A DNA stretch of 64,000 bases from Syntrophales bacterium (GTDB lineage: Bacteria > Desulfobacterota > Syntrophia > Syntrophales > UBA5619). Every line of letters starts with the position of its first letter. Position 1 is the stretch's first letter. The position numbers and the translations under genes were made by a program. The stretch spans positions 3,217 through 67,216 of the forward strand of contig JAXGRQ010000008.1 of NCBI GenBank assembly GCA_040765725.1, written 5' to 3'. The notes beneath the pieces were generated by a model. The model saw only the letters and a program-made list of their open reading frames with translations, had not been told where the DNA came from and did not search any database. Below, one piece after another: positions 5,272-59,066 of this stretch.

Positions 5272-5928
5272 TCAAGACGGGTCTGAATTTTCAGCCGAAC
5301 CCAGTGTGTCCAGGATAAGGCCGGCGGCGATGGCGCCTTCCCGGAGAATGCGGATGGGGAGGGTTGTGGCGTCGAGGATGGTCGAGCCGGCTTCCCCGGG
5401 CGTGGGTCCTCCGTCGATGATGGCATCCGGAAGGCCGCCCAAGGCTTGCATGACGGCGTCCGCTGTCGAGCAATCCGTGCCGCCGGACAGGTTGGCGCTG
5501 GTAGCCGTCAGCGGGCCTGTGATCCCTGCCGCGAGGAGCCTCGCGATCGGGTGTCCGGAAATGCGGATACCGATTTTTCCCGTTCCGCCGGTGAGGCGGT
5601 TCGAAACCGCGGGAGAAGCCCGGAAAAGGATCGTGAGCGGCCCGGGCCAGAATCTTTGCATCAGGTTTTTCGCCGTCATCGGGATCTCCTCCGCAAGCGG
5701 AGTCACGTCCCGCTCTTCGGCGACGATCAACGCAATCGGTTTGTTGAAATCCCGTCCCTTGATCCGGAAGATTCTCTCCACAGCCGCTTCGTTTCGTGCG
5801 TCGACTCCCAGGCCATAGAAGGTCTCTGTGGGAAAGGCCACCACGCCCCCGCCCTTGAGGATGCGGACGGCCTCTGCCATTTTCCCCGGATCGGGTCGCG
5901 CCGGGTCGATCTTCAGCAGGAGGGACAT
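5272..5928 (-). CDS. tsaC: L-threonylcarbamoyladenylate synthase (Sua5/YrdC)
   Basis: VAFPTETFYGL, KGR, FWPGPLT, TSANLSG. Confidence 0.92.
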   Translation of the reverse strand: MSLLLKIDPARPDPGKMAEAVRILKGGGVVAFPTETFYGLGVDARNEAAVERIFRIKGRDFNKPIALIVAEERDVTPLAEEIPMTAKNLMQRFWPGPLTILFRASPAVSNRLTGGTGKIGIRISGHPIARLLAAGITGPLTATSANLSGGTDCSTADAVMQALGGLPDAIIDGGPTPGEAGSTILDATTLPIRILREGAIAAGLILDTLGSAENSDPS

Positions 5929-43843: not shown

Positions 43844-44209
43844 TTATTCCCCCTTGAGTTTTTCCATCTTCTCCTGCTTCATCTTGCATTCGATGCAGAG
43901 GGTCGTGACCGGCCTTGCCATCAACCTCTTTTCGGAAATCGGGCCGTTGCAGACTTCACAGATGCCGAAGACGCCGTCGTCCATCCGCTGGATGGCCTCT
44001 TTCATCTTGAGGATCAGTTTCCTCTCGCGGTCCCGGATCCTCAGCTCGAAATTCCGGTCCGATTCGAGCGAAGCGCGATCATTGGGATCCGGATAGTTTT
44101 CCTTTGCGCCGCTCGTCATTTCCGATACGGTTTTCCCCGCTTCTCCGAGAAGTTCGTTGATCTTCTGGGTCAGCATGTATCTGAAAAATTCTACCTTTTC
44201 GGGTTTCAT
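43844..44209 (-). CDS. dksA: RNA polymerase-binding factor DksA
   Basis: Coiled-coil tip PDPNDRA, C4 zinc finger CEVC...CIEC. Confidence 0.92.
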   Translation of the reverse strand: MKPEKVEFFRYMLTQKINELLGEAGKTVSEMTSGAKENYPDPNDRASLESDRNFELRIRDRERKLILKMKEAIQRMDDGVFGICEVCNGPISEKRLMARPVTTLCIECKMKQEKMEKLKGE

Positions 44210-44317
44210 GGTTGTTTTCGCCACGTCGCTTCTCGTCTCCTGAATACAATTTGGGGGAATGCTCATACAGGATCATGGAAGGTTTGTAAAGCAAAAAATG
44301 AACGGGGGCGCGTTTTT

Positions 44318-44800
44318 TCAAACTTTCCCGTAAATTCCCAGGATCTTTTCCACAATGTTTGTTGTGGAAGCCCCTTCGACCATCGGGATCAGGATAACCG
44401 ACCCCCCCCAGGACCGCACGGCATCGCGTCCAACGACGGCCTCTTCCGACCAGTCTCCCCCCTTGATCAGGCAATCGGGCCTCAGGTATTCGATCAGTTT
44501 GAGGGGGGTGGTTTCATCGAAAAGGGTCACATAATCGACCGCTTCCAGGGATGCAATCACCTCGGCCCTCTGCCGCTGGGGCACGAGGGGCCGCTTCGCT
44601 CCCTTGATGGCCCGGACAGAGGCGTCACTGTTCAGGGCGACGACGAGCAGATCCCCTGCCTTCCGCGCTTCCCGAAGGTACCGGACATGTCCCACATGCA
44701 AAATGTCGAAACAGCCGTTCGTAAACGCGATCTTGTCGCCCCGGCGGCGGTGAAGTTCGACCTTTTGCTTCAATTCTTCCCAACCGAGAATTTTTTCCAT
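44318..44800 (-). CDS. rfaE2: D-glycero-beta-D-manno-heptose 1-phosphate adenylyltransferase
   Basis: FTNGCFDILHVGH, LNSDASVR, KGGDW, STTNIV. Confidence 0.92.
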   Translation of the reverse strand: MEKILGWEELKQKVELHRRRGDKIAFTNGCFDILHVGHVRYLREARKAGDLLVVALNSDASVRAIKGAKRPLVPQRQRAEVIASLEAVDYVTLFDETTPLKLIEYLRPDCLIKGGDWSEEAVVGRDAVRSWGGSVILIPMVEGASTTNIVEKILGIYGKV

Positions 44801-44819
44801 AAGACCGTTTCCCTCCGTG

Positions 44820-45608
44820 TCATCCCTCGGCTTCTGCAGACCGTTCCGGCAAGGTCTGCCCCGGCTCCGGAGGGGTATCGATGTCCCGGACCGCCCGGGC
44901 CAAGGTGAGAACGGCGACCGCTTCCGCCTTTGCGCGGATCAGGGTTCGGGAACATTCCTCCAGCGTGCTGCCCGTGGTGTAGACATCGTCCACCAGAAGG
45001 ATCCTGCGTCCGGCGATCCGTTCCGGATGTCTGACCGTAAAGATGCCGTGAACATTCGCGCACCGTTCCTTCCGGTCCAAACCAACCTGCGGCGGCGTAA
45101 AAATCTCGCGCCGCAGCGATGTGAAATCAAGCATAATTCCGAACCGTTTGGCCAGTGCGCGCGCCAGGATCACGGATTGGTTGAATCCCCTGCTCCTCAG
45201 TCTTTTCCGGTGCAGCGGCACGGGAACGACCCGCTCGAAAACCTTCATGTCCCAGAGGGTCTCTGCGAAGTCGGCCATGATTCCGCCCAAGATTTTTCCG
45301 ATGCCCGTTTTCCCTTGGTACTTGAAACGGTGAATGGCCGTCAAGAGCGTTCCCTCATAACTCCCCACCGAGCGGGCGACCGCATAGGGTCTGTCCATCC
45401 TGAGACAGTCGCCGCAGAGGCGATCCTCCCCTTCGGCGACGGGAAAGGGGACCCCGCAACGGGGACAAAGGGGGGAATGGAGAATTCGGATCCCGGCCCG
45501 ACAGGATGGACAGAGCGGGAGCGCATCGTGGCGCTCCAACGGCTCATCGCAGGTCATGCAGCGGGGCGGATAGATCAGGTCGGCGATCCCGGTCAGGATC
45601 TTTTTCAA
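44820..45608 (-). CDS. comF: ComF family protein (double zinc ribbon + PRTase)
   Basis: YPPRC..C, PVPLH..RLRSRGFNQS, LLVDDVYTTGST. Confidence 0.9.
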   Translation of the reverse strand: MKKILTGIADLIYPPRCMTCDEPLERHDALPLCPSCRAGIRILHSPLCPRCGVPFPVAEGEDRLCGDCLRMDRPYAVARSVGSYEGTLLTAIHRFKYQGKTGIGKILGGIMADFAETLWDMKVFERVVPVPLHRKRLRSRGFNQSVILARALAKRFGIMLDFTSLRREIFTPPQVGLDRKERCANVHGIFTVRHPERIAGRRILLVDDVYTTGSTLEECSRTLIRAKAEAVAVLTLARAVRDIDTPPEPGQTLPERSAEAEG

Positions 45609-45610
45609 GT

Positions 45611-46009
45611 CTATATCCCTTGCGGCAGTTCCTTCAGCAAAGCGTTTCCGTCGGGGATCGCCGCGCGCGGCGTTTCGAACCAGAGCCGCTCCAAGTCATA
45701 GAAGGCCCGGACGGATTCGAGGAAAACATGGATGATCACGTCGTCGTAATCCAGCAGGATCCACCTCCCCGCATCCTCCCCTTCAACCCCAAGAGGGAGG
45801 ATTTCCGCCTTTTTCAGGCTTTCCTGGATCGCGGCGGCGATTGCCCGGACCTGGCGGTCGGATGTTCCGCTGCAGAGGATGAAATAATCCGCAAAGCTGG
45901 AAACCGAGCTGACATTGAGGATGATGAGGTCTTTCGCCTTTTTTTCCATCGAGGCGTTGAGACACAGCAGCGCCCTCTCCCGCGAATCTCTCTCTTTTTC
46001 CCTCGTCAA
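45611..46009 (-). CDS. rsfS: ribosome silencing factor
   Basis: KKAKD, ADYFILCSG, WILLDYDDVIIHVF, FYDLERLW. TTG start follows GGAGG. Confidence 0.92.
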   Translation of the reverse strand: MTREKERDSRERALLCLNASMEKKAKDLIILNVSSVSSFADYFILCSGTSDRQVRAIAAAIQESLKKAEILPLGVEGEDAGRWILLDYDDVIIHVFLESVRAFYDLERLWFETPRAAIPDGNALLKELPQGI

Positions 46010-46211
46010 ATATCCTCCTCTTCCCGAATGGTCGCCGGACCGTCTGCAGCTCCCCTCTTCCTGCCTCTTCCCTCGATGCACGGTTTGTCTTTTCATTAGC
46101 AGAATAAAGGGTTTGTGTCAATGAACATCGGACCCGGAGCGGCAGATTGGCGTTGTGAAAAGAAACCGCCTGTGCTAAACACATGCCCGTGTGAACGGAG
46201 GTGGGTATCCC

Positions 46212-47006
46212 GTGCGGGAGATTCTGCAAAAAATACAGGTTCATGTGCCCTTCCATCTGCTTTGGGATAAGCTGTGGTCCTGGGTGATTCGGGAGGGCGT
46301 CAACCCGGAGATCGCTTTCAGCCACCGGGATCTAGACCGTTTTCAGCCGGCGGATTTTCGGGAAATGGCGAAACGTCTCGGCGATGCGGGCCTCTCGATC
46401 ACCTTTCATGCCCCCTTCATGGACCTGAGGCCGGGGGCTTTCGATCCCCGGATCCGACAGGTCTCCATTGAACGTCTCCGCCAGGTTTTCGATCTGATTC
46501 CGTGGTTCAGACCCCGTTCGGTGGTCTGCCACCCCTCGTTCGATGAAAAATACTATATCTCCGCGGAGGCCCGGTGGGTGGAAAACAGCCTGTCCACCTG
46601 GCAGATGCTGCTCGCCGACATCCAGGGAACGGAGACGATCCTTGCGCTGGAAAATGTCTATGAAAGGGATCCCAAACCGTTGAAACACCTGCTCGACGCC
46701 CTGAACTCGCCGAAGGCCCGTTTCTGTTTCGATACCGGCCATGCGAACGTCTTCGGCCGTGTCCCTCCGATTTTTTGGATCGAGGCCCTCGGCGATCGGC
46801 TGGGCGAGATTCACATCCACGACAACGACGGAAACATGGATGAGCATCTGCCGGTGGGTGAGGGGAACATCCCTTTCCGTGAACTCTTCGCCAAGCTCCG
46901 CGGACAGAATCTCCGGCCGATCCTTACCGTGGAATCCCATTCGGAAAAGGGTCTCCAACGGATGTTGGAGAACCTCCGCGCGATGAACCTGCTGGAAGGT
47001 TTCTGA
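46212..47006 (+). CDS. sugar-phosphate isomerase/epimerase / AP endonuclease 2 TIM barrel
   Basis: TFHAPF, LALENV, CFDTGHA, IHIHDN...DEHLPVGEG. Confidence 0.85.
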   Translation: MREILQKIQVHVPFHLLWDKLWSWVIREGVNPEIAFSHRDLDRFQPADFREMAKRLGDAGLSITFHAPFMDLRPGAFDPRIRQVSIERLRQVFDLIPWFRPRSVVCHPSFDEKYYISAEARWVENSLSTWQMLLADIQGTETILALENVYERDPKPLKHLLDALNSPKARFCFDTGHANVFGRVPPIFWIEALGDRLGEIHIHDNDGNMDEHLPVGEGNIPFRELFAKLRGQNLRPILTVESHSEKGLQRMLENLRAMNLLEGF

Positions 47007-47049
47007 CGGATTTTTGACCGCCGGACGGGAAAAGAGGTAAGGGGGAGGC

Positions 47050-48024
47050 ATGCTTCGCTATATCGCCAAGAGACTTCTCTTCATGGTTCCGCTCCTGTTC
47101 GGGATCACGGTCATCTGTTTTACCGTGATGCACCTGGCCCCCGGCTCCCCGACCGACCTCCAGACCCAGATGAATCCTCGCGCCTCCGTGGAAATGAAGG
47201 AGCGCCTCCGGTCCATGTACGACCTCGACAAACCGCTGCCCGTGCAATATATCCGGTGGGTCGGGAAACTGGCCAGGCTGGATCTCGGCATTTCCTTTTC
47301 CACGGACCGAAGGCCGGTTGCCGACAAGATTCTCGAACGGCTGCCGATCACGATCCTGCTGAACGTGCTTTCCATGCTGCTCATCTTCGTGGTGGCCATT
47401 CCGCTCGGGGTGCTCTCTGCGGTCCGCCAGGATTCGCTCTTCGACCGGGTGACGGCCGTCATCGTCTTCATCGGTTTTGCCGTGCCGACCTTCTGGCTTG
47501 CCCTTCTGCTGATGATCCTGTTCGGCATCCATCTCGGCTGGCTTCCGATTTCCGGGATCCGTTCCCTGAACGCCGAGTATCTGCCGCCGGCCATGGCTTT
47601 CTGGGACCTGATCCGGCATCTCATCCTGCCGGTGCTCCTCGCTGCGTTCGGCGGTCTGGCCGGGTTGTCCAGATACATGCGGGCGAATATGCTGGAGGTG
47701 ATCCGTCAGGACTATATCCTGACGGCACGGGCCAAGGGGCTTTCCGAACGGGCGGTGATCTATCGCCATGCGCTGCGAAACGCCCTTTTGCCGGTCATCA
47801 CGATTCTCGGTCTGTCGATTCCGGGACTCATCGGGGGGAGCGTCATCTTCGAGACGATCTTCGCCATCCCCGGAATGGGCCAGCTCTTCTACATGGCGGT
47901 GATGGCCAGGGACTATCCGGTGGTTATGGGAATCCTCTTCATCGGCGCCGTCCTGACGCTGTTTGGGAACCTGATCGCCGACGTTTTCTACGCGCTGGCC
48001 GATCCGCGGATCCGGGTGTCCTGA
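47050..48024 (+). CDS. peptide/nickel ABC transporter permease (OppB/DppB-like)
   Basis: [11 protein letters not shown] (EAA loop), [23 protein letters not shown]. Confidence 0.92.
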
Positions 48025-48033
48025 GGGGTGAGC

Positions 48034-48867
48034 ATGGGAAGCGATTTCAGGAAAAGATTCATCAGAAACCGGATGGCGGTCGCGGGGAGCCTCATTGTGA
48101 TCGTTCTGTTTGCGGTCTCGCTGTCGGCGCCCTGGCTCGCCCCCCATGATCCGAGCGCCATCGACCTGAAAAATGTCCTTACGGGGCCTTCAGGAGAGCA
48201 TCCCTTCGGGACGGATCCGCTGGGACGGGACGTTCTCTCCCGAATGATCTGGGGGGCGGGGATCTCTCTCAAGGTGGGTTTCGTGGCGACCGGAATCTCC
48301 ATCCTGATCGGGACGATCCTCGGCGCGCTGGCCGGCTATTACGGACGCTGGGTGGACGCGGTGATCATGAGGTTCGTGGACATCATGCTCTGCTTCCCGA
48401 CTTTTTTTCTGATCCTGGCGGTGATCGCGATTCTGGAGCCCTCCATCTGGAACATCATGATCGTGATCGGCCTGACCGGATGGATGGGGGTGACGCGGTT
48501 GGTCCGGGCCGACTTCACCTCCCTCAAGGAAAGGGATTTCGTTCAGGCGGCGCGGGCGATCGGCGCCGGGGACCTTCGGATCATCTTCCTGCACATTCTT
48601 CCGAATGCGATGGCATCGGTACTGGTCACTGCCACCCTGGGCGTGGCGGGGGCCATCCTGACGGAATCGGCGCTGAGCTTCCTCGGCATCGGGGTTCAGC
48701 CGCCCACGCCAAGCTGGGGGAATATCCTGACGGCCGGCAAGGACAACATCGACATCGCCTGGTGGCTCTCCCTCTATCCGGGACTCGCCATCCTGATCAC
48801 CGTTCTGGGCTACAACCTGCTGGGCGAAGGGATCCGCGATGCCCTCGATCCCAGGCTCCGGCGGTAG
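48034..48867 (+). CDS. peptide/nickel ABC transporter permease (OppC/DppC-like)
   Basis: HPFGTDPLGRD, FVQAARAIGA, ESALSFLGIG, PSWG. Confidence 0.92.
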   Translation: MGSDFRKRFIRNRMAVAGSLIVIVLFAVSLSAPWLAPHDPSAIDLKNVLTGPSGEHPFGTDPLGRDVLSRMIWGAGISLKVGFVATGISILIGTILGALAGYYGRWVDAVIMRFVDIMLCFPTFFLILAVIAILEPSIWNIMIVIGLTGWMGVTRLVRADFTSLKERDFVQAARAIGAGDLRIIFLHILPNAMASVLVTATLGVAGAILTESALSFLGIGVQPPTPSWGNILTAGKDNIDIAWWLSLYPGLAILITVLGYNLLGEGIRDALDPRLRR

Positions 48868-49097
48868 CGGGTGGGGAGTACCTTTGGTATCCCGGCACAC
48901 TCAGTTGATGCGTGCATCTATTTCGTTCACAAGTCTTTAGCCGAAGGGATTCTCCATCCCTGATCGTTATTTATTGAAGTCAAGGATTTGGGGGAATATT
49001 TCTTTGTAGCAGCTTTGGATTGGTAATGTGCAGGCCTGGATACGGATAAAAGGAGGGTTTGGAATGCCGAGTGTCGTGTCACAAAACGCGGTAATCG

Positions 49098-50240
49098 CTA
49101 CCTCTCTAAATATTGCTTCATGGAAGTATGGCCTGAGCGAAAAAAGTCAAGACTGCTACATCCCTTGTTTCTAAGGGTTTGGCAGACACTCAGTAACATT
49201 AAGGAACCCCTTAATCCTGCTTCTGTTGAAGACCCACCGATAACGCGGCGCATTGTGGCAAATCCCTTGATGGCGTTCTCTGCATTATTGTTGTTCCAAG
49301 GGATACCGTTGTGATCAAGAAACGTAAATAAACGATTCCTGTTCTTTGCAAATCGTGTTTGGTATTTCCGTGTCAACTCCGATATTCCTTCACAATCTAC
49401 GTAAGCACTGAAAAACTTCTCTACCTCCCTTTTATGCTTTGAAAGAAACCGTTGTTTCAATCCGAATCGATCAATTGTGACAATTATAGGTTTCAGAAGT
49501 TCACCAAATTTCTGTACAAATGCCTTGTATTCCAAGTCAAACTGGTTTTTGAAAAGATCGTCGTTAAGATCACGTATCAGATGCACAAGACAGCGTTGTT
49601 GTTCGCATTCAATACTCTCGTAGACCGGGAAAAAATCAGATACAAGAACTCCATGGAATCCTCGGAGGGTTTCCTCCTCAAGAATGGCACCTTCCCTTGT
49701 AGGCGAATAGACGTAGGCAACTTCATCTAAGTTGGTAAATACCCATACATAAGCAGTTGATCCCTTCACGCTAACATTTGTCTCATCAACATGTACAAGG
49801 TGGCCTCTCTGTATGCCGTAAAGAATTTCCTCATAAGTATCGCGGTATGTTCGTACTGCTCTCCTTTTTAGAACAGGGATAACGCTACGCCAATTGAAAT
49901 GGAACCCAAAGATATCATTCAATCCCTTTCCGACATTTTCCTGGGACTGACGAAGACCTATATTTTGATAAACTGTCCAAGCAACAAGACCATTCCCAAA
50001 TCTTTCACTGGTTTCAGGATGTTCACTCGGATAAAATGTCTTCTTGCATATTTGGCAGATGAACCGATGATTCCAATATTCCACCACCCACCGTTTTACT
50101 CCAGAAATGGAGAATTTAAGATCATATATGATCCGATTGTATCGCCCGTGCATAAAAACTTCACTACTTGCGCAAGTTGGGCATTTACGGGGCCTTGCAG
50201 AGATGATCACTTTGTTAACCCGCATCTTTCGTGGTCGCAT
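49098..50240 (-). CDS. IS66-family DDE transposase domain (C-terminal part of a probable fusion)
   Basis: Zinc ribbon CPTC...CQIC, VHVDET, VLVSDF, QRCLVHLIRD, PWNNNNAENAIK. Confidence 0.85.
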   Translation of the reverse strand: MRPRKMRVNKVIISARPRKCPTCASSEVFMHGRYNRIIYDLKFSISGVKRWVVEYWNHRFICQICKKTFYPSEHPETSERFGNGLVAWTVYQNIGLRQSQENVGKGLNDIFGFHFNWRSVIPVLKRRAVRTYRDTYEEILYGIQRGHLVHVDETNVSVKGSTAYVWVFTNLDEVAYVYSPTREGAILEEETLRGFHGVLVSDFFPVYESIECEQQRCLVHLIRDLNDDLFKNQFDLEYKAFVQKFGELLKPIIVTIDRFGLKQRFLSKHKREVEKFFSAYVDCEGISELTRKYQTRFAKNRNRLFTFLDHNGIPWNNNNAENAIKGFATMRRVIGGSSTEAGLRGSLMLLSVCQTLRNKGCSSLDFFRSGHTSMKQYLER

Positions 50241-51525
50241 CCTGATTTTCTTCTGGCTCTTTTTTTACCTCATTACTGGTGCGCCAGAATATTTTCTCAT
50301 GTTGGTAATCGAAATAGGCACAATTATTTATGAATTCAAGTTCAGGAAAAGCAAAGGTGTTCTTTCCCCATCCATATAAATTCTGCCGCTTCAATTTCTC
50401 GCAGAGTATTACTGACTCCGCTTTTGTTTCTTCAGCAAACTTTTTAAGCTGTGCGACAAGAAGCGCCAAAGCCTCGCAATCTTCATGGTTATATTCCAAG
50501 ATCCGGTCCTTAAATTCTTCCCCAAAATGCTGTTCCCATTGTAAACGCCAAGTGATGCTCTGCATTCCAGATGCTTTTGCATCCCTCCAATGAAAATCGA
50601 GAAAAGTCCCTATCTCTTTAAGTCCATTGCCATAAGAGGGGAAATATACTTTTCCATAAAGGAGGGATAAGGTGTTTATCAGGCTTTCACTCACCGGGAT
50701 CCCATTCAAATTGCCGTACTGGACTTGCATTTTCTTTACAAAGACGCTGTCGTAATTTCCGTGATGATAAATAACGAAATCTTCCAGCTTATCAATTACA
50801 TCTATAAACTGCCTCCAAATCTTTTCTTGGTCATTTTCTGAATCGGCCCAGAACTGAAAAACTTTCCTTTCTCCTCCCTTAATAACGAGTAGGCCAATCA
50901 AGTATACAAAGTCCCTATCAGGTAATCCCTCAATATCGAGAAAAACGAGCGTGCTGGGGGTGGACAATTTAGGCTGCTCAACTATGTAGGTTTTCTTTTC
51001 TCGAATTGCAAGCGCCCTAAGCGCATAGTTGTTCTTTACCGTAGGGACAGTCTTTCGTGACCGCCTCGGGCGAAATGTGTAGCTGAGTTGCGTAACAGAA
51101 AAGATTCCTTTTCCGTTAAATTTCTTCAGCTCTTTGTCGGAGATTCCGCTTAACAAACTCAGGTGATCTATTTCGACTGCTTTTTTTCGGCATGACCCGG
51201 AGAACGTGCATTCTGAACAATGATTATTCAAACGGAAAAAAGCTTCTTTGTCGGCGTCAATCATCCTCTTCACTTCTCGAATGGCCTTTTCGAGAACAAG
51301 TATTTCAGGAACGAGGTTGACTGTGATTCGCTGTTGGGAAGTGCCGACAATTAGGACGCCTCTCTTGGGCAAAACCCCGACTAATTTACCCGTGATTATG
51401 GAGGCAAGGGCAAGAGTTTTTCTCCCTAAGACGGACGGCTTAGTTGACAAAGAAATAAGGAGAGGGGAGTAAGTCGATTGTCGTTCTTCCGACCCAAAAC
51501 TTTTTCGATACCATCCACGTCGCAT
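50215..51525 (-). CDS. TM0106/RecB-like region with Fe-S Cys cluster, HhH and DEDD (RNase_H_2-like) exonuclease (middle part of a probable fusion)
   Basis: HCSECTFSGSC, LSLLSGIS...GIFSVTQL, FLDIEG, YHHGNYD, YNHEDC. Confidence 0.75.
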   Translation of the reverse strand: MRRGWYRKSFGSEERQSTYSPLLISLSTKPSVLGRKTLALASIITGKLVGVLPKRGVLIVGTSQQRITVNLVPEILVLEKAIREVKRMIDADKEAFFRLNNHCSECTFSGSCRKKAVEIDHLSLLSGISDKELKKFNGKGIFSVTQLSYTFRPRRSRKTVPTVKNNYALRALAIREKKTYIVEQPKLSTPSTLVFLDIEGLPDRDFVYLIGLLVIKGGERKVFQFWADSENDQEKIWRQFIDVIDKLEDFVIYHHGNYDSVFVKKMQVQYGNLNGIPVSESLINTLSLLYGKVYFPSYGNGLKEIGTFLDFHWRDAKASGMQSITWRLQWEQHFGEEFKDRILEYNHEDCEALALLVAQLKKFAEETKAESVILCEKLKRQNLYGWGKNTFAFPELEFINNCAYFDYQHEKIFWRTSNEVKKEPEENQDATTKDAG

Positions 51526-51851
51526 TGTAGTTTATGGTATGTAAGCCTGACATTGCCAAATACACTACTGGAAAGCGCACGGAGGTCAGCAGGTGACGAA
51601 AGTGTACCGTTGAAAGTTGCATACCCATCATTATTTGTTGGATGCCATCGTTCTTTCAGCCGTTCGAGTTGATATTTTTGAATAGCTTCTATTTCACTGG
51701 GCGTGTTTGGGCATGATGGAAATGCGATCCGTTGCGCTGCTTTATACTTGCAGTTAGCAAAGTCGACCAGGAGCTCTGGATCAAAAGCAATGTCGGAATT
51801 CATTGAATTCGATCCATGAGCGATGTCTTGACCTGCATTTGTTGAATTCAT
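51426..51851 (-). CDS. N-terminal segment of the RecB/Cas4-like fusion
   Basis: LLVDFANCKYKA (N-terminal Cys of Cas4/AddB type) and CDVDGIEK. Same frame as 49098..50240. Confidence 0.55.
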   Translation of the reverse strand: MNSTNAGQDIAHGSNSMNSDIAFDPELLVDFANCKYKAAQRIAFPSCPNTPSEIEAIQKYQLERLKERWHPTNNDGYATFNGTLSSPADLRALSSSVFGNVRLTYHKLQCDVDGIEKVLGRKNDNRLTPLSLFLCQLSRPS

Positions 51852-51853
51852 TA

Positions 51854-51912
51854 AATCTCTTCGGGTTGTATTCCCCGCAGCTTGCGACGGGGATGATTTA
51901 TTTGAAGAGATT
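51854..51912. repeat. nested imperfect palindrome (REP/PATE-like)
   Basis: AATCTCTTC...TCCCCG-cagcttgcga-CGGGGA...GAAGAGATT. Confidence 0.5.
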
Positions 51913-51957
51913 CGGCAGCATATGAAATGGTACTGCAGCCAGCTATCCTATGAAAAG

Positions 51958-52254
51958 CTATGCAACAACGAACTCGATTTTAACCCGCATCCCAGTTGCT
52001 TCAGCGATTTTTTCCAAGGTCTTAAGAGTGAAGCCCTCATATGCGCCGCTCTCAATCCTCGAAATCGCCTGCTGGCTTGTTCCCATAAGCTTTGCCAATT
52101 CCTGTTGCGATAAGCCTTTCTGATCACGGAGTTCCGCAATTTTCATTGCCAGCTTTAGAGCTTGCCGCTCTTCTTGGTAATGCTTTTTGAAGTCGGGATC
52201 TTTCATGTCTTCCCGCAACCTGCTTTGGAATGTCCGAACTTTGCCTTTTTTCAT
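51958..52254 (-). CDS. XRE/HTH antitoxin (HigA-like)
   Basis: LRDQKGLSQQELAKLMGTSQQAISRIESG; overlaps the toxin stop (ATGA). Confidence 0.88.
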   Translation of the reverse strand: MKKGKVRTFQSRLREDMKDPDFKKHYQEERQALKLAMKIAELRDQKGLSQQELAKLMGTSQQAISRIESGAYEGFTLKTLEKIAEATGMRVKIEFVVA

Positions 52255-52622
52255 ATTTCACCTCCCGTAGGAAACCTCCGCATCCAGTCTTCCATGCGTT
52301 TTTCAGCCAAATCAACATCCTGCTTTTTCAATTGCTGCGTTTTTTTGGAAAAGCCGTGCACCAACACAATCTGATCAAGCATCTGAAAAAAGTAGAGGAT
52401 GCGAAACTGGTTGGAGGTGTAATGTATTCTCAATTCCCTTATTTTACCTCTGACGGTATCAGCATAGGGCCGCTTAAGATTAGGGCCTTGCTCTTCCAAG
52501 AGCGATAGGTATGCAGCAACCTTAGCCCGTGACTTCTTGTCTAACCCGTCAAGAAAATCATCAAGCGGCGAATCGCCCCGTTCAGCCGTGTAGAAGATCA
52601 GATTGTACAAGCACACCCCCAC
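52251..52622 (-). CDS. RelE/ParE-superfamily toxin (HigB/Gp49-like)
   Basis: GPNLKRPY, IRELRI, RILYF, LVHGFSKKTQ; toxin-first order; exact start uncertain. Confidence 0.88.
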   Translation of the reverse strand: MGVCLYNLIFYTAERGDSPLDDFLDGLDKKSRAKVAAYLSLLEEQGPNLKRPYADTVRGKIRELRIHYTSNQFRILYFFQMLDQIVLVHGFSKKTQQLKKQDVDLAEKRMEDWMRRFPTGGEI

Positions 52623-52633
52623 ACTACGGCCAC

Positions 52634-52662
52634 CATATACATCATGTTTGATGTATTGTCAA
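52634..52662 (-). promoter_or_regulatory. TA promoter with palindromic operator
   Basis: Minus strand TTGACA-17 bp-TATATG. The spacer is occupied by the perfect IR ATACATCA-N4-TGATGTAT (52637-52656). Confidence 0.7.
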
Positions 52663-52796
52663 GGGTATCTATTCGTTCAGCCGTTATTGTTTTGTGATTT
52701 CATGATTCCCAAATCGATTCTGCTATTATTGATGCTTTGTTCAACCCTGATGAACCCTAAAGACCTCAATGTTGCAACTGATTATGCCGGACGATC

Positions 52797-53636
52797 CTAT
52801 TTCCCATGCAGGATATCCATCCATCGGATTGCCTCGGTGTCATTGATCTTGCCGAGATAGACCTGGGTGGTCTTCAAATCCTGGTGCCTCAAAATCACTT
52901 TTGATACGACTTCCAGCGGCACACCGTTTCTGCTGGCATATGTGGCTGAATATCTCCGGAGATCATGAGGCGCAATACGAACATTCACTTTCTCGCCCAG
53001 TCGCCTGACAAGTGCTCTTGCCGTTGAATAGCATATCGGGAATGGGCGGTCATCCGATTGCAGGGCCTTATCCCTGACATATTCCGCCAGCTTCTTTGAT
53101 ACATTCTCTGGCATGTAAGCCAGTTCTGATTCTTTACCTGATTTGGGCGCCGGTAACGTAATGGTTCTGTCTGAAATATCCGACACCTTTATCTTCAGCA
53201 ATTCACCGATTCTTAATCCACATCTTGCCTGAAGTTCCAGGATCAGGCGATCTCTCACCCCTTTCGTGTTGTAAATCATTTCATCCACCGTTTCCCGTTC
53301 CAGCATCTTGCGTAGGACCTGCTTTGGCGTTCGATGGAATTTTCTCAGCAGAGACGTGTTACAAGGATTTTTCATGTTCAGTGAGCAACGGTCGATGATG
53401 AAATTGTAGAAGGCTTTTAACTGCGCATACCGGAGCCTTCGAGTAGATTTGGCAAGATCATGTGTTTGCCGTTCCAGAAAGGTGTAGATTTCATCGGGCC
53501 TAATGGAATCCCGCACCGCCCAGCGTAAATCCGTTCAAACTCTGCTGAGTAGATAATCGTAGCCGTCGATGGTCCGTTGTTGCAGGTTTGACTGGAGATA
53601 ATTATTGAACAACCTTATTGCCTCTTGTGTTGTCAT
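52797..53636 (-). pseudogene. tyrosine recombinase/integrase, N-terminus interrupted by an in-frame TGA (53535-53537)
   Basis: Catalytic R (CGLRIGEL), K (PKSGK), HDLRR and LRH...TTQVY are intact. ATG 53636 has an RBS and is in frame with 53516, but codon 34 is TGA. Confidence 0.75.
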
Positions 53637-53709
53637 GGTCCACCTTTTCTTTGTTTTTGAGGTCTTTGGGGGGTTGCCGGTGATTATATCTCAGGCGGAC
53701 CAGATGCTT

Positions 53710-53731
53710 GAGAAATATAAGAGAAATATAA
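53710..53731. repeat. 11-bp tandem direct repeat upstream of the integrase
   Basis: GAGAAATATAA x2. Confidence 0.6.
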
Positions 53732-53865
53732 GACGTGAAAAATGATGCCGCATTCTTGATTCTGATGAATACCCTTTGAACTCAGGTATTTTATTCAATA
53801 TTAGCATTCTGTTGAGTACAGCTATCATCAATCGGATGAACCGGATGAATCCCCATGCGTCGTCC

Positions 53866-55209
53866 CTATTTTTCCGGAGCGGCGTTTTCAACCGGTTTTT
53901 CGATCCGGACGATCCGGACCTTCTGGATGGCCGTTTTCGTAACCTCCTCGCATGTGAGGAGATAATTCTGCCATTCCATTTTTTCGCCCTTCTCGGGGAT
54001 CCGTCCGAGACGGTCAAGAATCAGCCCCGCCAACGTATCGTAGGGCAGAAAATCCCCCAGATCGACCCCCAGCAATTCTTCGATGTCATTGATCGGAAGA
54101 AGCGCATCCACCAGAAGGCTGCCGTCGGGCAGCTTCTGGAACCGGCGCGTTTCGCCCACGTCATGTTCGTCCTCGATTTCGCCGACGAGCTCTTCGAGAA
54201 GATCTTCCGTGGTAACAAGCCCGCTCAGGATGCCGTATTCGTCGACGACGAGCGCCAGGTGGATTCGTTTCCGCTGCATCTCCTTGAGAAGACTGCTGAC
54301 CTTTTTCCCCTCGGGAACGAAAAGCGGGGTCCGGATGATTCCGGCCAAGTCGAACTCGCCTTCGGTGAAGATCCGTCCCAGCAGGATGTCTTTGCTGTGA
54401 ACGAAACCGACAATATGATCCATGTCGCCCCGATAGACCGGATAGCGTGAGTAGAGGTTTTCCCGGATGGTGCGGAGAATATCTTCACGAGGGAGTTCCA
54501 GATTCAGCGCAATGATCCGGGTCCGGGGCACCATGACCTCGTGGACGGCGGTATGGGTGAATTCAAACACGTTTTCGATGTATTTGTGTTCGGTCTCCGT
54601 CAGGGCGCCGGTCTCGCTTCCCTCCGAGAGGACCTGCTGAACCTCTTCACGGGTGATGAAGGCGTGCCCCTCCCTCGGCTTGATTCGGAGAAGCGCAAGC
54701 ACGGCCCGGTTGGATAGGGTGAGGAAGCGGACGGCGACCGCGGCGACGATCGAAAGAATGCGGATCGGCCGTGCGACGACCAGCGCGATGCGGTCGGCGT
54801 ACTGCAGGCCGATGGTTTTGGGGGCCAGCTCGCCGAGCACGAGGAACAGGTAGGAGATCCCGATGACGACCAGGGCGATCGATAGGGGATCCGCGGCGTG
54901 ACGGATAATATCAAAGGGTGCTCTCTGAAGCACGGGCTTGAGGTATTCAATGGCCGCGGCGCCTCCAATGGCAGAGGCGAACGAACCGACAACGGTCACG
55001 CCGATCTGGACGGTGGCCAGAAAGCGGTGCGGGTTCTTTTGGATCTGCTCGACCAGGCGGGCGTTCGGATTTCCGGCCGCGGCGAGGCTCGCGATGTGGG
55101 TTTTACGGGCGGAGAGAACGGCCAACTCCGCGGCGGAAAAAAAACCGTTTGCCAGGATCAGGATGAAGATGAGAAAAAATTCGTTCAAAATGAGATCCAA
55201 TACGATCAT
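53866..55209 (-). CDS. HlyC/CorC (CNNM) family transporter-associated protein
   Basis: ANGFFSAAELA (DUF21), GELAPK, CBS pair VMVPR / YSRYPV / VVDEYG, CorC C-terminus. Confidence 0.92.
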   Translation of the reverse strand: MIVLDLILNEFFLIFILILANGFFSAAELAVLSARKTHIASLAAAGNPNARLVEQIQKNPHRFLATVQIGVTVVGSFASAIGGAAAIEYLKPVLQRAPFDIIRHAADPLSIALVVIGISYLFLVLGELAPKTIGLQYADRIALVVARPIRILSIVAAVAVRFLTLSNRAVLALLRIKPREGHAFITREEVQQVLSEGSETGALTETEHKYIENVFEFTHTAVHEVMVPRTRIIALNLELPREDILRTIRENLYSRYPVYRGDMDHIVGFVHSKDILLGRIFTEGEFDLAGIIRTPLFVPEGKKVSSLLKEMQRKRIHLALVVDEYGILSGLVTTEDLLEELVGEIEDEHDVGETRRFQKLPDGSLLVDALLPINDIEELLGVDLGDFLPYDTLAGLILDRLGRIPEKGEKMEWQNYLLTCEEVTKTAIQKVRIVRIEKPVENAAPEK

Positions 55210-55273
55210 CCTCCCCGAAATTCATGCCCGGTAAGACCTGAACATTCTCCGCTGCCGTTCCTCAGTGAAGACT

Positions 55274-55960
55274 TCACTCTTCCCCCCTGCTTGCCCTGTG
55301 CCTTTTCACGAAGTGGAGAATCTCTTCATGGTAATAGTAGGCCAGCAGCGTGATCAGCGCGCTGACCCCTAAAATGGCCAGCATCGCTGCATGATGGTCG
55401 TTGCGCGCGTAGCTGCCGCTGACGGAAAGCATGATCGTTCCCATGAGGCGTCCGGCGGTGCAGATGATCAGAAAGATGGACATCTTCATGCGGCTGAGGC
55501 CGATGATGTAGGAGAGGGCATCCTTGGGGAAGCCGGGGATCAGAAAGAGGATGAAGGTGATCGGAATGCCGCGGTGCTCCATGAAGTGATTATACTTTTG
55601 AATGATTTTGGGGCTGACGATCCTTTCGACAAAAGGCATCCCGAGCCATCGGGCCAGCAGAAACGCGAGCCACGATCCGATCGTAAGGCCGATCGTCGAG
55701 TAGATCGTTCCCAGAACGGGTCCGTAGAGATACCCCCCGATAAAGCCGTTCAGCTCGCCCGGAATCGGCGCTACCAGTACCTGGACGATCTGAAGGCCGA
55801 TAAAGATGATCACGGAGAGGGGGCCGAATGAATTCAGAAAATGAACAACCTTCTTCCGGCTGACAAAGAAGGTGTAGAGGTCATAATGAAAGAAAAGGAA
55901 AACACCGGCAAGGATCAGGGCAAGCAGAAGTGCGAGCTTACATACGTCATTTCTGTTCAT
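55274..55960 (-). CDS. TVP38/TMEM64 (DedA/SNARE-associated) membrane protein
   Basis: QVLVAPIPGE, GYLYG, FLIPGFPKD. Confidence 0.85.
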   Translation of the reverse strand: MNRNDVCKLALLLALILAGVFLFFHYDLYTFFVSRKKVVHFLNSFGPLSVIIFIGLQIVQVLVAPIPGELNGFIGGYLYGPVLGTIYSTIGLTIGSWLAFLLARWLGMPFVERIVSPKIIQKYNHFMEHRGIPITFILFLIPGFPKDALSYIIGLSRMKMSIFLIICTAGRLMGTIMLSVSGSYARNDHHAAMLAILGVSALITLLAYYYHEEILHFVKRHRASRGEE

Positions 55961-56133
55961 GATTCCAAAATCGATTTGACCATACCCATCCCGGGACACC
56001 GCAGCGCCGGGAGCCTGCCACAACCTGACCGTTCGTGCTTAGTCGTAAACTAACAAAAGAAGATATGATTGTAAAGCAGGATATTCTCAAATCCAAAGAC
56101 GGAGGGAATTTTCGTTTCCGTCCATCCCCGGTC

Positions 56134-57081
56134 TCATTCGGATTGTTTCCTGAAATGATCGGCCACAAAGGTATCTGTAACCATCTGGGTCAAATGGTAT
56201 ACGATGGGCGGGATCATGGCCATGGGCAGATGCACGGAAAAATAAGCGGCCCAGACAATGTAGGGGATCGTCAGCGTCTTTTGCGAGGTGTGTATCGTAA
56301 AAGTCGCCCTGGACGGACGATCAAATTTCAGAATCCGCGAGATGCCGTAATTCGTGATCAGAACGATGGCGTGCAAAGGGATCATAAAGAGGAATACATA
56401 AAGAACCTGCGGACCTGCCCGCAGGAGCTGATCGGTGGAACTGGAAACGGAGTTCAAAATGATCATGAGAATGACCGTCTGGGAAAAGTACGAAAAAGCA
56501 GCGTGATATCGCTTCAACCGGTCCTGAACCCTGATTCTGAGGAGTTGTCCGAGAATTGTCGGAAGCAGGACGATCAACATCAGGTTCTTGAGCAACTCGA
56601 TTGCGGACAGCTCGATGTGTTGCTCAAATTGCACCATGATGCGGAGAGAAATGGGGATGGTGAAAAGGGAGACGAAATTGACGGCAATGCAGATCAGGAT
56701 GCTCAACGGAATGTTTCCGCGGGCCAGCCCCGTCAAAACGGTGCCTGAGGCAATCGTCACGGGCGCAACGGCGATGAGAATGGCTCCCAGGGTGAAATCC
56801 GACAAATCCCGCAACAGGAAAGAGGCCAAAAAATAGGTCAGGACCGGGAAAAAAAACAGGGACGAAAGGACGGCCGACGCCAGCCCTCGAATGTTTTTCA
56901 TTTCTTCAATCATGCTTTTCGTCTGCAGTTCGAGACCGTTGATGAAGAAGGCCAGAAAAATGCCGATGCCGAGCAGGCGCCATTCTTTGATCTTGATCCC
57001 CACAATCGGGGCTTGGAAAGCCAGAAAGACGACCACGGCGATGCCGATAAAGAACCAGTATTTGATCAGATATTTCTTCAT
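56134..57081 (-). CDS. bile acid:sodium symporter (SBF-like) transporter
   Basis: Multi-TM; PVTIASG..LT..ARGN, SQKTL, YHLTQ. Confidence 0.82.
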   Translation of the reverse strand: MKKYLIKYWFFIGIAVVVFLAFQAPIVGIKIKEWRLLGIGIFLAFFINGLELQTKSMIEEMKNIRGLASAVLSSLFFFPVLTYFLASFLLRDLSDFTLGAILIAVAPVTIASGTVLTGLARGNIPLSILICIAVNFVSLFTIPISLRIMVQFEQHIELSAIELLKNLMLIVLLPTILGQLLRIRVQDRLKRYHAAFSYFSQTVILMIILNSVSSSTDQLLRAGPQVLYVFLFMIPLHAIVLITNYGISRILKFDRPSRATFTIHTSQKTLTIPYIVWAAYFSVHLPMAMIPPIVYHLTQMVTDTFVADHFRKQSE

Positions 57082-57208
57082 GAGCCCTTCCTTCTCCATC
57101 GTGGGGCAATCCGAAACCGCTTGCAGCGCGGCGGGAATGTCGTTCGGATTTTCAGAATAAGGTTTTGGTCTCTCCTACGCTATCGAACGGCGATGATCTC
57201 GGATAATG

Positions 57209-57237
57209 CAAAACGGGCGGGATTGATCTCCCGCCCA
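57209..57237 (-). terminator. rho-independent terminator after pckG
   Basis: Minus strand GGGCGGGA-gatcaa-TCCCGCCC-GTTTT. Confidence 0.6.
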
Positions 57238-57284
57238 TTCGATTTCATCCGGCGCCATTCACGAACGGAAAACCCTTGGGTGGT

Positions 57285-59066
57285 TTACCCCAAACGTTTC
57301 CGGAGGTCGTCAAGCTGTTTCCGGAGCCTTCCGGGAAGACGGTCGCCGAACCGGGCAAAATGCCGCTCGATGTCTGCCGCCTCGGCCTTCCAAGCGGAAG
57401 GGTCGACGCGGAAGAGCTCTTTCAGGTCCGTCGGGGAAACGGCAAGGCCCGTAAGGTCGAGATCGCCCTTGGCAGGCATGAAGCCGATCGGGGTTTCCAG
57501 CGCCCCGATCTTCCCCTCGACCCGTTCGCACATCCATTTCAGGACACGGCTGTTTTCACCGAAACCGGGCCAGAGCCATCTTCCCTCCGGGCTTTTTCGG
57601 AACCAGTTCACGTAGAAAATCCTCGGGGCGTGCTTGCCGAATCGATCGCCCATGGTGAGCCAGTGGCCGAAATAATCGGCCATGTTGTAACCGCAGAACG
57701 GCTGCATGGCAAACGGGTCGCGCCGGAGATTGCCGACGGCGCCGATGTTCGCCGCGGTCGTCTCCGAAGAAGCCGTTGCACCCATAAAAACGCCGTGGTC
57801 CCAGGAAAAGGCCTCGTGAACCAGCGGCATGACGCTTGCGCGGCGGCCGCCGAACACGAAGATATCGATCGGAACGCCTTCGGGCTTTTCCCAGTCGGGG
57901 CAGATGACCGGGCATTGGCCGGCCGGTGCGGTAAAGCGGGCATTGGGATTGGCGGCCGGCTCACTGCCGCCGGGCGCCCAGTCCCGGCCCTTCCAGTCGA
58001 TGGCGTGGCTCGGAGGCGGTCCGTCCATCCCCTCCCACCAGATGTCGCCGTCGTCGGTCAGGGCGCAGTTGGTGAAGATCGTGTTCTCCTTCAGCGTCTC
58101 CATCGCGGACGGATTGGAGTCATAGGAGGTTCCCGGGGCGACGCCGAAGAAGCCGTATTCAGGATTGATCGCATAAGGCCTTCCGTCCGGACCGATTTTG
58201 ATCCAGGCGATGTCGTCACCGATGCATTCGCATTTCCAGCCGGGAATGGTCGGTCTGAGCATGGCCAGATTGGTCTTGCCGCAGGCGGACGGGAATGCGG
58301 CCGCAAGATGGAACTGTTTCCCCTCCGGATTGATCAGGCGGAGAATCAGCATGTGTTCGGCCATCCACCCCTCCCGTTTGGCCATGGCCGAGGCGATGCG
58401 AAGCGCGAGACATTTCTTTCCCAGAAGGGCATTTCCCCCATAGCCGCTGCCATAGGACCAGATCAGATCCTCCTCGGGAAAATGGCTGATGTACTTCTTC
58501 TCCATCGGGGCGCAGGGCCAGGGCTCATCCTTCCGGCCCGGATCCAGCGGCGCGCCGACGGAATGCAGGCAGGGGACGAACTCGCCGTCGGCGCCGAGTT
58601 TCTCGATCACTTTTGTTCCGACCCGCGTCATGATGTGCATGTTGCAGACGACGTAAGGGCTGTCCGTGATCTCGATGCCGATCTTGGCGATCGGTGAATC
58701 GACCGGGCCCATGGAAAAGGGGATCACATACAGGGTGCGCCCCCTCATGCAGCCGTCGTAGAGACCCTTCATCGTTGCCTTCAGCTCTTCCGGCGCAATC
58801 CAGTTGTTGGTGGGCCCCGCATCGTCCTGTTTCGCCGTGCTGATATAGGTGCGCGCTTCGACCCGGGCCACATCGCTCGGCTGGGAGCGAAAGAGAACAC
58901 TGTTGGGACGCTTCGCCAGCGGCGTGGCCGCACCGGAAGCCACCATCTGCTTCATCAGGCGATCATATTCCTCCCGGCTGCCGTCGCACCAGTGAACGGC
59001 GTCGGGCCGACACCAATGGGTCATCTCGCTGACCCATTGGTTTAAAGCTTTATGTTTTGTGAACAT
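57285..59066 (-). CDS. pckG: GTP-dependent phosphoenolpyruvate carboxykinase
   Basis: [55 protein letters not shown]. Confidence 0.96.

Follow-up and report, generated by a model that had tools for sequence, protein, structure and literature searches.

A gene broken by two frameshifts in a Syntrophales genome encodes a TM0106-type module fused to an IS66-type DDE domain and belongs to a widespread family that fails the classical tests of an IS66 element

The stretch analysed here, called the window throughout, comprises 64,000 nucleotides (nt) of contig JAXGRQ010000008.1 from a Syntrophales bacterium (assembly GCA_040765725.1; positions 3,217 to 67,216 of the forward strand). On its minus strand, positions 49098-51851 are a single gene for a protein of ~915 amino acids (aa), which is split by two frameshifts into three overlapping open reading frames (ORFs) and which joins a module of the TM0106/COG2251 type to the zinc ribbon and DDE domain of an IS66 transposase. 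The domain order is a Cas4-like Fe-S domain, a degenerate helix-hairpin-helix (HhH) linker, a DEDDy exonuclease, a zinc ribbon and an IS66-type DDE domain. An earlier note, made from the letters alone, had read the three minus-strand frames as one domain chain, and alignment to intact metagenome homologues of 895-920 aa (85-89% identity), on which the ORFs tile one protein end to end, bears this out. All the motifs that it quoted are present and could be mapped to window codons, and the joints that it had placed at ~51500 and ~50263 fall in A-runs at 51501-51505 and 50260-50266. The gene and its parts are:

49098..51851 (-): full extent of the broken gene that encodes the TM0106-IS66 fusion (~915 aa), from tiling of the ORFs on homologues
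51426..51851 (-): ORF 1, 141 aa, N-terminal half of the Cas4-like domain
51750-51752 (-): first Cys of FANCKYK, an Fe-S ligand of the Cas4-like domain
51513-51515 (-): motif II Asp (VDGIEK, within CDVDGIEK), in ORF 1
50215..51525 (-): ORF 2, 436 aa, exonuclease-bearing (PF13482 and TIGR03491)
51501..51505 (-): frameshift site 1, five A in a row (GAAAAAG) where relatives have one extra base
51451..51465 (-): place of PD-(D/E)xK motif III, reading P-L-L-I-S (E-x-K in Cas4 and stand-alone TM0106)
51190..51219 (-): C-x2-C-x5-C cluster (HCSECTFSGSC), making four Fe-S ligands with the first Cys
51061..51171 (-): HhH-like linker, by positional homology to the HHH_5 of stand-alone TM0106; no profile match
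50437..50955 (-): DEDDy 3'-5' exonuclease domain (PF13482), by profile and fold
50929-50937 (-): ExoI (FLDIEG), D at 50935-50937 and E at 50929-50931
50749-50751 (-): ExoII D (HGNYD)
50479-50493 (-): ExoIII (YNHEDC), Y at 50491-50493 and D at 50479-50481
50260..50266 (-): frameshift site 2, seven A in a row against six in relatives
49098..50240 (-): ORF 3, 380 aa, zinc ribbon and IS66-type DDE domain
50181-50183, 50172-50174, 50055-50057 and 50046-50048 (-): two CxxC pairs of the zinc ribbon
49785-49787 (D), 49635-49637 (D) and 49278-49280 (E) (-): DDE triad (VDET/VSDF/NNNAE)

Profile searches assign the middle and the end of this chain directly. ORF 2 matches PF13482 (RNase_H_2) at 95.1 bits and the TM0106 model TIGR03491 at 170.2 bits (cut-off 97.45), the latter over model positions 110-456 of 462; ORF 1, to which the first ~110 positions of that model correspond, matches no Pfam or NCBIfam family. 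ORF 3 matches PF03050 (DDE_Tnp_IS66) at 97.3 bits against a cut-off of 23.1, within the range of 95-122 bits found in full-length homologues, and lies barely above the cut-off of the IS66 transposase model NF033517 (181.6 against 180 bits). The Cas4 family PF01930 was matched by two homologues (22.9-30.8 bits), and PADLOC gave weak matches to Cas4 and to cas-associated DEDDh.

Fold comparison agrees with the profiles. An AlphaFold2 model of homologue P0001, which is 87% identical to ORF 2 of the window, was built on an alignment of 125 sequences and reached a mean pLDDT of 85.4 and a pTM of 0.67. Residues 22-233 of the model resemble Cas4 as seen in Cas4-Cas1-Cas2 complexes (7mi5_A; Z 15.3, rmsd 3.5 Å, 188 residues aligned), residues 302-487 resemble the exonuclease domains of family B polymerases (Z 14.8 for E. 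coli Pol II and up to 15.6 in a range that includes archaeal PolB), and residues 547-901 resemble the ISCth4 transposase (Z 14.5, 313 aligned), which is the best solved structure for the C-terminal 350 residues (PDB 6xg8/6xgx; Foldseek E 2.4e-7). The Cas4-like and exonuclease domains read in the earlier note are thus supported by both kinds of comparison. Its HhH stands by position and not by profile: no Pfam family was found at E<=5 in the 71-residue window stretch at 50986-51198, but the stand-alone TM0106 protein L191 has an HHH_5 at the equivalent place (E 1.7e-10), and the P0001 model has two short helices there.

Conservation was assessed in 159 full-length members for the Cas4-like and exonuclease parts and in 125 sequences for the DDE domain and zinc ribbon. 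The four Fe-S cysteines are kept in 142, 159, 159 and 157 of the 159, the 17 members that lack the first being N-terminal gaps. Equally well kept are the exonuclease residues (ExoI D in 159 and E in 158, ExoII D/E in 159, ExoIII Y and D in 159 each). In the DDE domain, D693, E694 and D742 never vary and conservation of E861 is at least 90%, as it is for any zinc-ribbon cysteine that is not invariant; few stretches are as conserved as the junction region (PEL..IN..AYFDYQ). The DDE and DEDD residues picked out in the earlier note are therefore conserved in the homologues, and on their residues both the exonuclease centre and the DDE centre look live.

The PD-(D/E)xK centre of the Cas4-like domain is another matter. 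Its motif III, which the earlier note had called degenerate, has lost both Glu and Lys in 159/159 full-length members: the Glu position is most often R (80) or L (46), the Lys position V (55), I (25) or S (23), and the commonest residues include neither E nor K. The P-L-L-I-S of the window has L and S at these positions, so that the catalytic Glu and Lys are absent. The motif II Asp is retained in 67 of the 159, and the window copy has it too. When the fused family is aligned by profile to solved Cas4, the E-Y-K of Cas4 stands opposite R-F-V, and two stand-alone TM0106 proteins retain D, ExK and QxxxY. To judge from this pattern, the Cas4-like domain has lost its ability to cut but has very probably kept Fe-S cluster binding.

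Both breaks in the gene are 1-nt insertions or deletions in A-runs, and the window copy differs by these two homopolymer changes from near-identical intact copies, which adds to the picture in the earlier note. At site 1, eight relatives have one base more (members of the L112-L120 set carry GAGAAAAG or 6-7 A), and at site 2 seven relatives of the same set have six A. Contigs from landfill metagenomes that are 95-99% alike to the window correct the breaks as well: X1 and X2 have a T added behind 51500, and X1, X2 and X6 have one letter fewer at 50260, so both frames are open in very close relatives. Run X3, possibly the source sample, has contigs 100% alike to the window that span neither site. 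The copy, which is the single one in its own genome (2.4 Mb, 104 contigs, 82.5% complete), either became a pseudogene very recently or carries assembly errors in homopolymers. A complete ribosomal RNA (rRNA) operon (16S, two transfer RNAs, 23S, 5S) inside the same contig, at 15957-21188 (+), is unusual in short-read bins; it hints at a long-read assembly and would thereby favour the assembly error. Against that reading, an integrase gene in the island described below has a frameshift, an extra G, that falls outside a homopolymer, and the host genes on both sides of the island are intact.

The family to which the gene belongs is large, widespread and patchy. A search limited to proteins of 764-2180 aa returned 2408 relatives at E<=0.001, and the best 120 of these carry PF03050 and PF13482 in one chain without exception (120/120; PF01930 too in 28), as expected of a fused polypeptide and not of a chance insertion. 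Among 50%-identity representatives, an exhaustive HMMER search found 2771 matches at E<=0.001 and 606 at E<=1e-30, and intact single-ORF homologues of 890-960 aa are abundant. When each species is represented by one genome, a relative is encoded at 577 places, in Planctomycetota, Nitrospirota, Verrucomicrobiota, Acidobacteriota, Proteobacteria, Omnitrophota and others. Almost all of them come from metagenome bins; Methylobacter svalbardensis and Microvirga tunisiensis are among the isolates, and many of the loci are found on short contigs or at the ends of contigs. Copies 88-89% identical occur across bins labelled Acidiferrobacterales and Betaproteobacteria. Among 72,556 plasmids there are two full-length copies (Acaryochloris marina pREC4 and Calothrix PCC 7716), annotated as 'TM0106 family RecB-like putative nuclease' and 'transposase IS66, putative'; the 50,697 phage records hold no full-length copy, their matches being to the C-terminal part of ISEc8 type, and none was confirmed in viral contigs. 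In the phylum of the window, the TM0106 model matches 3 of 151 sampled genomes, and the other two matches are stand-alone proteins of ~500 aa. Database relatives of 400-700 aa were considered as true stand-alone forms and rejected: they break off within the junction or the zinc ribbon, often with a tail read out of frame, and appear to be pieces of fused genes.

Decayed copies are common in the clade of the window. Besides the window copy they include L116/L117, which have a frameshift of their own at a different place, in a C-run; L120, from which 1.3 kb is missing; and G161:C458, which is cut at about residue 250. Genome G178 holds a further decayed copy with an interruption of ~1 kb.

To provide a positive control for element-level tests, we used a canonical 1444-bp single-ORF IS66-type element (L106 1242-2685, genome G001), which has at least 10 copies in G001 at 99.5-100% identity, inverted repeats GTAACTGTTCAGA (GTAA...) and an 8-bp duplication, AAAAAATT, on both sides. 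The fused genes present a different picture. In 84 loci with enough flank, searched over segments -300..+30 and -30..+400, the best terminal inverted repeats scored 9.21 against 9.06 in shuffled sequence, with the control positive, and none was found in the window or in four Microvirga contigs. No 7-mer just outside the ORF was common to more than 6 of 65 loci. In the pairs of copies inspected there was no target duplication at the limits of likeness, which may differ from the true ends. Nor did copy number suggest recent bursts: of 10 genomes, seven have one full-length copy, one has two divergent fused copies against 32 canonical IS66 matches that include runs of identical score, and the other two are a Microvirga with 4-5 divergent paralogues and a genome with a single interrupted copy. 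On terminal inverted repeats and copy number, both named in the earlier note as points to check, the family fails the classical tests of an IS66 element.

Where copies 78-99% alike lie in unrelated flanks, their likeness is confined to the gene and ends within tens of bases of the start and stop. The 3' limit is sharp: it falls at the identical nucleotide in L032, L044, L047 and L048; divergence starts ~20 nt past the stop in L112, L113, L117 and L118; and the divergence points of L127, L128 and L129 lie within 2 nt of one another. The 5' limit differs from copy to copy.

The absence of tnpA and tnpB remarked on in the earlier note holds for the neighbours of the window gene, and no IS66 accessory protein was found in 150 flanking ORFs scanned at 39 loci; the same ORFs include no cas proteins. 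Across 670 flanking ORFs at 159 loci there is no conserved partner gene, the largest cluster covering 5 loci, mostly near-duplicate contexts, and CRISPR-like arrays adjoin the gene in one weak case in the 159. The search for known defence systems returned domain matches to Cas4 and DEDDh alone.

What the gene does have around it in the window is a small island, a second point beyond the earlier note. Its features, and other loci with a recombinase and a toxin-antitoxin pair beside the fused gene, are:

48931..53863 (no strand): AT-rich island holding the gene, G+C 0.41-0.47 against ~0.60 outside
51958-52254 (-): HTH_3 antitoxin, intact, upstream of the fused gene
52251-52622 (-): Gp49/HigB-like toxin, intact; the pair with the antitoxin spans 51958..52622
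52797..53637 (-): tyrosine recombinase, frameshifted by an extra G near 53545
L114 1018-5725; L216 (G161:C458) 1-2234; L217 4100-8903; L021: recombinase and toxin-antitoxin beside the fused gene

The N-terminal ~40 codons of the island integrase (MTTQEAIRLFNNYLQ..., ATG near 53635) lie in another frame, and over 237 aa the protein shares 96% identity with an integrase of L114, which is intact at 279 aa and is encoded upstream of the fused gene there. At the same locus in three genomes of the same genus (G167, G161, G166) the island is absent and its flanks are 190-270 nt apart; G157 has there a 4.3-kb cluster of ordinary genes (Crp/Hcp/Fe-S/enoyl-CoA hydratase), and G160 and G164 have other genes downstream of the ABC permease. 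As the occupants differ among genomes of one genus, the locus is a variable hot spot and the whole ~5-kb island is an insertion. No tRNA gene lies within 44000-58000, and an attempt to place the att site exactly was abandoned, since divergence between the intergenic DNA and the empty sites is too great.

An integrase, a toxin-antitoxin pair and the fused gene follow one another in this order also in L114 and in the same-genus G161:C458, both with VapBC, and again in the Nitrospirae bin L021; on the Acaryochloris plasmid a VapC gene and a small recombinase lie beside the fused gene. The association is thus seen in distant lineages, and the toxin-antitoxin module (VapBC or HigBA) is swapped between otherwise alike islands. 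Within 2 kb of the gene, a toxin domain of a toxin-antitoxin system was found at 11 of the 39 scanned loci, a recombinase, other transposase or conjugation protein at 7, and either class at 16. Across 98 loci, the G+C content of the gene differs from that of the flanks by -0.055 on average; the gene is the poorer by more than 0.03 at 72 of these loci and the richer at 2.

Comparison with known systems helps to place this architecture. The C-terminal ~380 residues, zinc ribbon plus PF03050 DDE domain, correspond to IS66 TnpC, including the single-ORF ISBst12 type: ISEc8 TnpC aligns to residues 540-890 of the fused protein at 23% identity, and the canonical IS66 copies of G001 match positions ~513-891 of the fused-family profile. 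In place of the N-terminal region of canonical TnpC, the fused protein has a TM0106 module of ~540 residues, and its gene lacks the GTAA inverted repeats, 8-bp duplication, tnpA/tnpB and bursts of identical copies of IS66 elements. The ISCth4 transposase belongs to another insertion-sequence family, IS256, and at 12-15% identity serves as a fold reference for the DDE core and insertion domain. The N-terminal module has the domain order of TM0106/COG2251 (TIGR03491: Cas4-like, HhH, PF13482) and equal DEDDy residues, but the two stand-alone TM0106 proteins examined keep D, ExK, QxxxY and a detectable HHH_5, whereas in the fused family ExK is lost and the HhH is degenerate. An excerpt from Majorek et al. 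(2014; PMC3985635) presents COG2251 as a predicted exonuclease that is uncharacterised and has a PD-(D/E)XK-like domain, and one from Steczkiewicz et al. (2012; PMC3424549) places it with Cas4.

CRISPR adaptation likewise combines an Fe-S Cas4 fold, a DEDD exonuclease and an integrase (Cas4-Cas1, PDB 7mi5 and 8d3l; DEDDh with Cas2/Cas1), and its integrase needs trimmed 3'-OH ends. The fused enzyme differs in that its integrase is an RNase-H-fold DDE domain and not Cas1, and in that its Cas4-like part is catalytically dead. The likeness is one of logic and not of integrase ancestry. The parallel with Cas4/DnaQ trimming coupled to Cas1 that the earlier note had drawn stands in that sense, and finds no counterpart in the neighbourhood, which has neither an adjoining array (the one weak case aside) nor a conserved partner gene.

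Tn7 offers a further comparison. There the restriction-fold PD-(D/E)xK nuclease TnsA works with the DDE transposase TnsB; TnsA is catalytically active and cuts 5' strands, and Tn7 has defined ends and 5-bp duplications. A TnsA-like second-strand role is unlikely for the Cas4-like domain of the fused family, because its PD-(D/E)xK residues are gone. The same excerpt from Steczkiewicz et al. (2012; PMC3424549) lists TnsA as a PD-(D/E)XK transposase and describes RecC as an inactive RecB homologue.

The explanation that we somewhat favour is that the family comprises IS66-derived DNA strand-transferases with a DNA-end module of their own, the window gene being one such gene broken twice. The dead Cas4-like Fe-S domain would hold or thread a single-stranded DNA end without cutting it, a role comparable to that of catalytically dead nuclease folds elsewhere, such as RecC. 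The proofreading-type exonuclease would then trim the 3' strand back to a usable 3'-OH, and the DDE site would join the trimmed end to target DNA. The gene itself may spread horizontally as a gene-sized unit by a route unlike classical IS66 cut-and-paste; alternatively, it may ride in small integrase-bearing islands, as in the window. A self-moving gene is the best reading because the likeness among copies is gene-sized and has a sharp 3' limit. It is tempting to go further and to see a new DDE mobile element or DNA-end integrase that works without inverted repeats, by Fe-S capture, exonuclease setting of the 3' end and DDE integration. One sharp end by the stop codon, a ragged upstream end and no target duplication would be the marks of such an element, which would represent functional convergence on the Cas4/DEDD/Cas1 logic of CRISPR adaptation, built on a transposase. 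We consider this stronger version rather unlikely.

Several points weigh against these proposals. The mechanism is an inference, and no ends could be defined at the loci examined. A DDE enzyme with no recognisable terminal repeats is unusual, and the ends may be cryptic or lie beyond the -300/+400 nt searched. Most of the genomes are metagenome bins, in which repeats collapse, so the copy numbers may be underestimates, and an excerpt from Challacombe and Kuske (2012; PMC3469429) credits Ca. Solibacter usitatus with 4 IS66 + COG2251 genes. The neighbour Pfam scan covers 150 of 404 flanking ORFs at 39 of 129 loci and gives raw counts with no background rate. The comparison with stand-alone TM0106 is with two proteins, one of which has no Cys cluster, and the state of the window copy fits a pseudogene and an assembly error alike.

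Among the other explanations the strongest is that the enzyme is domesticated: it would no longer move its own gene and would act in trans for a host, island or plasmid, perhaps against incoming DNA or other IS66 elements, perhaps in the capture or repair of DNA ends, and would spread solely as cargo of integrase-bearing islands and plasmids. Such a role would suit the failure to find terminal inverted repeats and target duplications, the prevalence of one copy per genome where the same genome can hold 32 canonical IS66 copies, the strict conservation of two catalytic centres, the recurring trio of integrase, toxin-antitoxin pair and fused gene, and the fact that comparison with related genomes shows an insertion of the 5-kb island as a whole and not of the gene alone. 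It sits poorly with the lack of any known defence-system match beyond the Cas4 domain, of a conserved partner gene in 159 loci and of an adjoining repeat array, as well as with the frequent decay of copies and the near-absence from vehicles (no phage record and just two full-length plasmid copies in the sets searched); likeness that ends within tens of bases of the ORF also suggests a gene-sized mobile unit over passive cargo. We regard domestication as possible, though the less likely account. As to the choice that the earlier note had left between a transposase with built-in end processing and a domesticated enzyme, the fused enzyme stands, and the failure to find terminal inverted repeats or target duplications, together with the low copy number, speaks against a simple transposase.

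That an ordinary autonomous IS66 element with a long N-terminal extension of its transposase has simply had its ends missed is improbable and largely refuted. ORF 3 does pass NF033517, the ISBst12 group of IS66 is likewise without tnpA and tnpB, and many loci lie, as repeats do, on short contigs or contig ends. However, inverted repeats were no better than shuffles in 84 loci where the canonical control was detected, no duplications were seen at the limits of likeness in the pairs inspected, and copies within a genome are divergent paralogues and not recent bursts. The four genes of this kind tabulated for one genome in the excerpt from Challacombe and Kuske (2012) also speak for such an element. 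The frameshifts might be programmed, with ribosomal or transcriptional slippage yielding short Cas4-like, TM0106-like and full fusion products on the model of IS1 and IS3, which make OrfA and OrfAB. Both shifts do lie in A-runs, and many database fragments terminate in the Lys-rich linker after the exonuclease domain. This idea is contradicted and deserves very little credence, because the close relatives L112-L120 have neither shift, site 2 requires +1, and L116/L117 are shifted elsewhere, in a C-run; moreover, three runs have 95-99% alike contigs that read in frame, and a canonical zero-frame X XXY YYZ heptamer is missing from both sites. Chance adjacency, with an IS66 element inserted beside an unrelated TM0106 nuclease gene, has nothing but the split reading frames in its favour and is refuted: as a rule both parts stand in one polypeptide of 890-960 aa, whose junction is highly conserved.

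In the full-text literature, with subscription journals outside the scope, we found no functional or comparative study of the fused architecture, in keeping with the earlier note. To our knowledge, there is no mechanistic study of the transposition chemistry of the IS66 family either. The sole printed trace found is an uncommented table row, 'transposase IS66, pfam03050 + COG2251, 4', in the excerpt from Challacombe and Kuske (2012; PMC3469429), and 'Phylogenomics of Cas4 family nucleases' (Hudaiberdiev et al., 2017; PMC5704561) mentions neither transposase, IS66 nor COG2251. The architecture is already in databases, where pipelines call it inconsistently 'IS66 family transposase' or 'TM0106 family nuclease'.

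The window copy, being broken, is of little interest alone; the interest lies in the family, in which an IS66 transposase and an uncharacterised TM0106 module are joined in hundreds of lineages, with clear selection on the exonuclease centre, the DDE centre and the Fe-S site and loss of the nuclease centre. It offers a testable system for studying how a DDE recombinase can work together with the processing of DNA ends. Should the repeats and duplications be truly absent, the DDE enzyme would recognise its substrate by the structure of an end and not by its sequence, which, if true, would be of interest to transposon biology and tool building. If the family is instead a cryptic ordinary insertion sequence or passive cargo, the finding shrinks to an inconsistently named database architecture.

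Some smaller observations concern repeats and flanks. General flanking direct repeats scored 10.12 against 9.10, an excess that was set aside since it comes from L019 (67 bp), L058 and L033 (39 bp). The repeats of L019 (1936-2003 and 5195-5261) and L033 (2922-2961 and 5966-6003) could be att-like sites or host repeats and are unseen in the other 82 loci tested. L058, which was also the lone outlier in the inverted-repeat test, was discounted there as a host repetitive extragenic palindromic (REP) element beside a REP-associated transposase: REP-like palindromes (GTAGGGTGCGTTA...TAACGCACC) at ~2380-2600 and 5490-5620 bracket the fused gene and adjoin a gene resembling a REP-associated tyrosine transposase. 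Small high-coverage contigs of Microvirga were considered as collapsed repeats and rejected, as they hold the 4-5 divergent paralogues and have in common a 333-bp unrelated repeat only.

Just upstream of the fused gene in the window, at 51851-51885 (+), lies a 35-nt sequence with a TCCCCG...CGGGGA hairpin, and DNA likeness to relatives begins at ~51801 on this 5' side of the gene. The hairpin sequence occurs once in its own genome and as 13, 14 and 5 dispersed single copies in the same-genus genomes G161, G167 and G165, and the X1 and X2 contigs break off there. Probably a REP-like repeat of the host, it takes the place of the upstream region common to relatives of the gene. In Acidobacteriota, L032, L041 and L047 have in common a stretch ~100-230 nt upstream of the fused ORF that is missing from L044 and L048. 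It reads like the C-terminal end of another protein (...TLVDA.RF.G..YRAANW...) and resembles DUF4338-type proteins.

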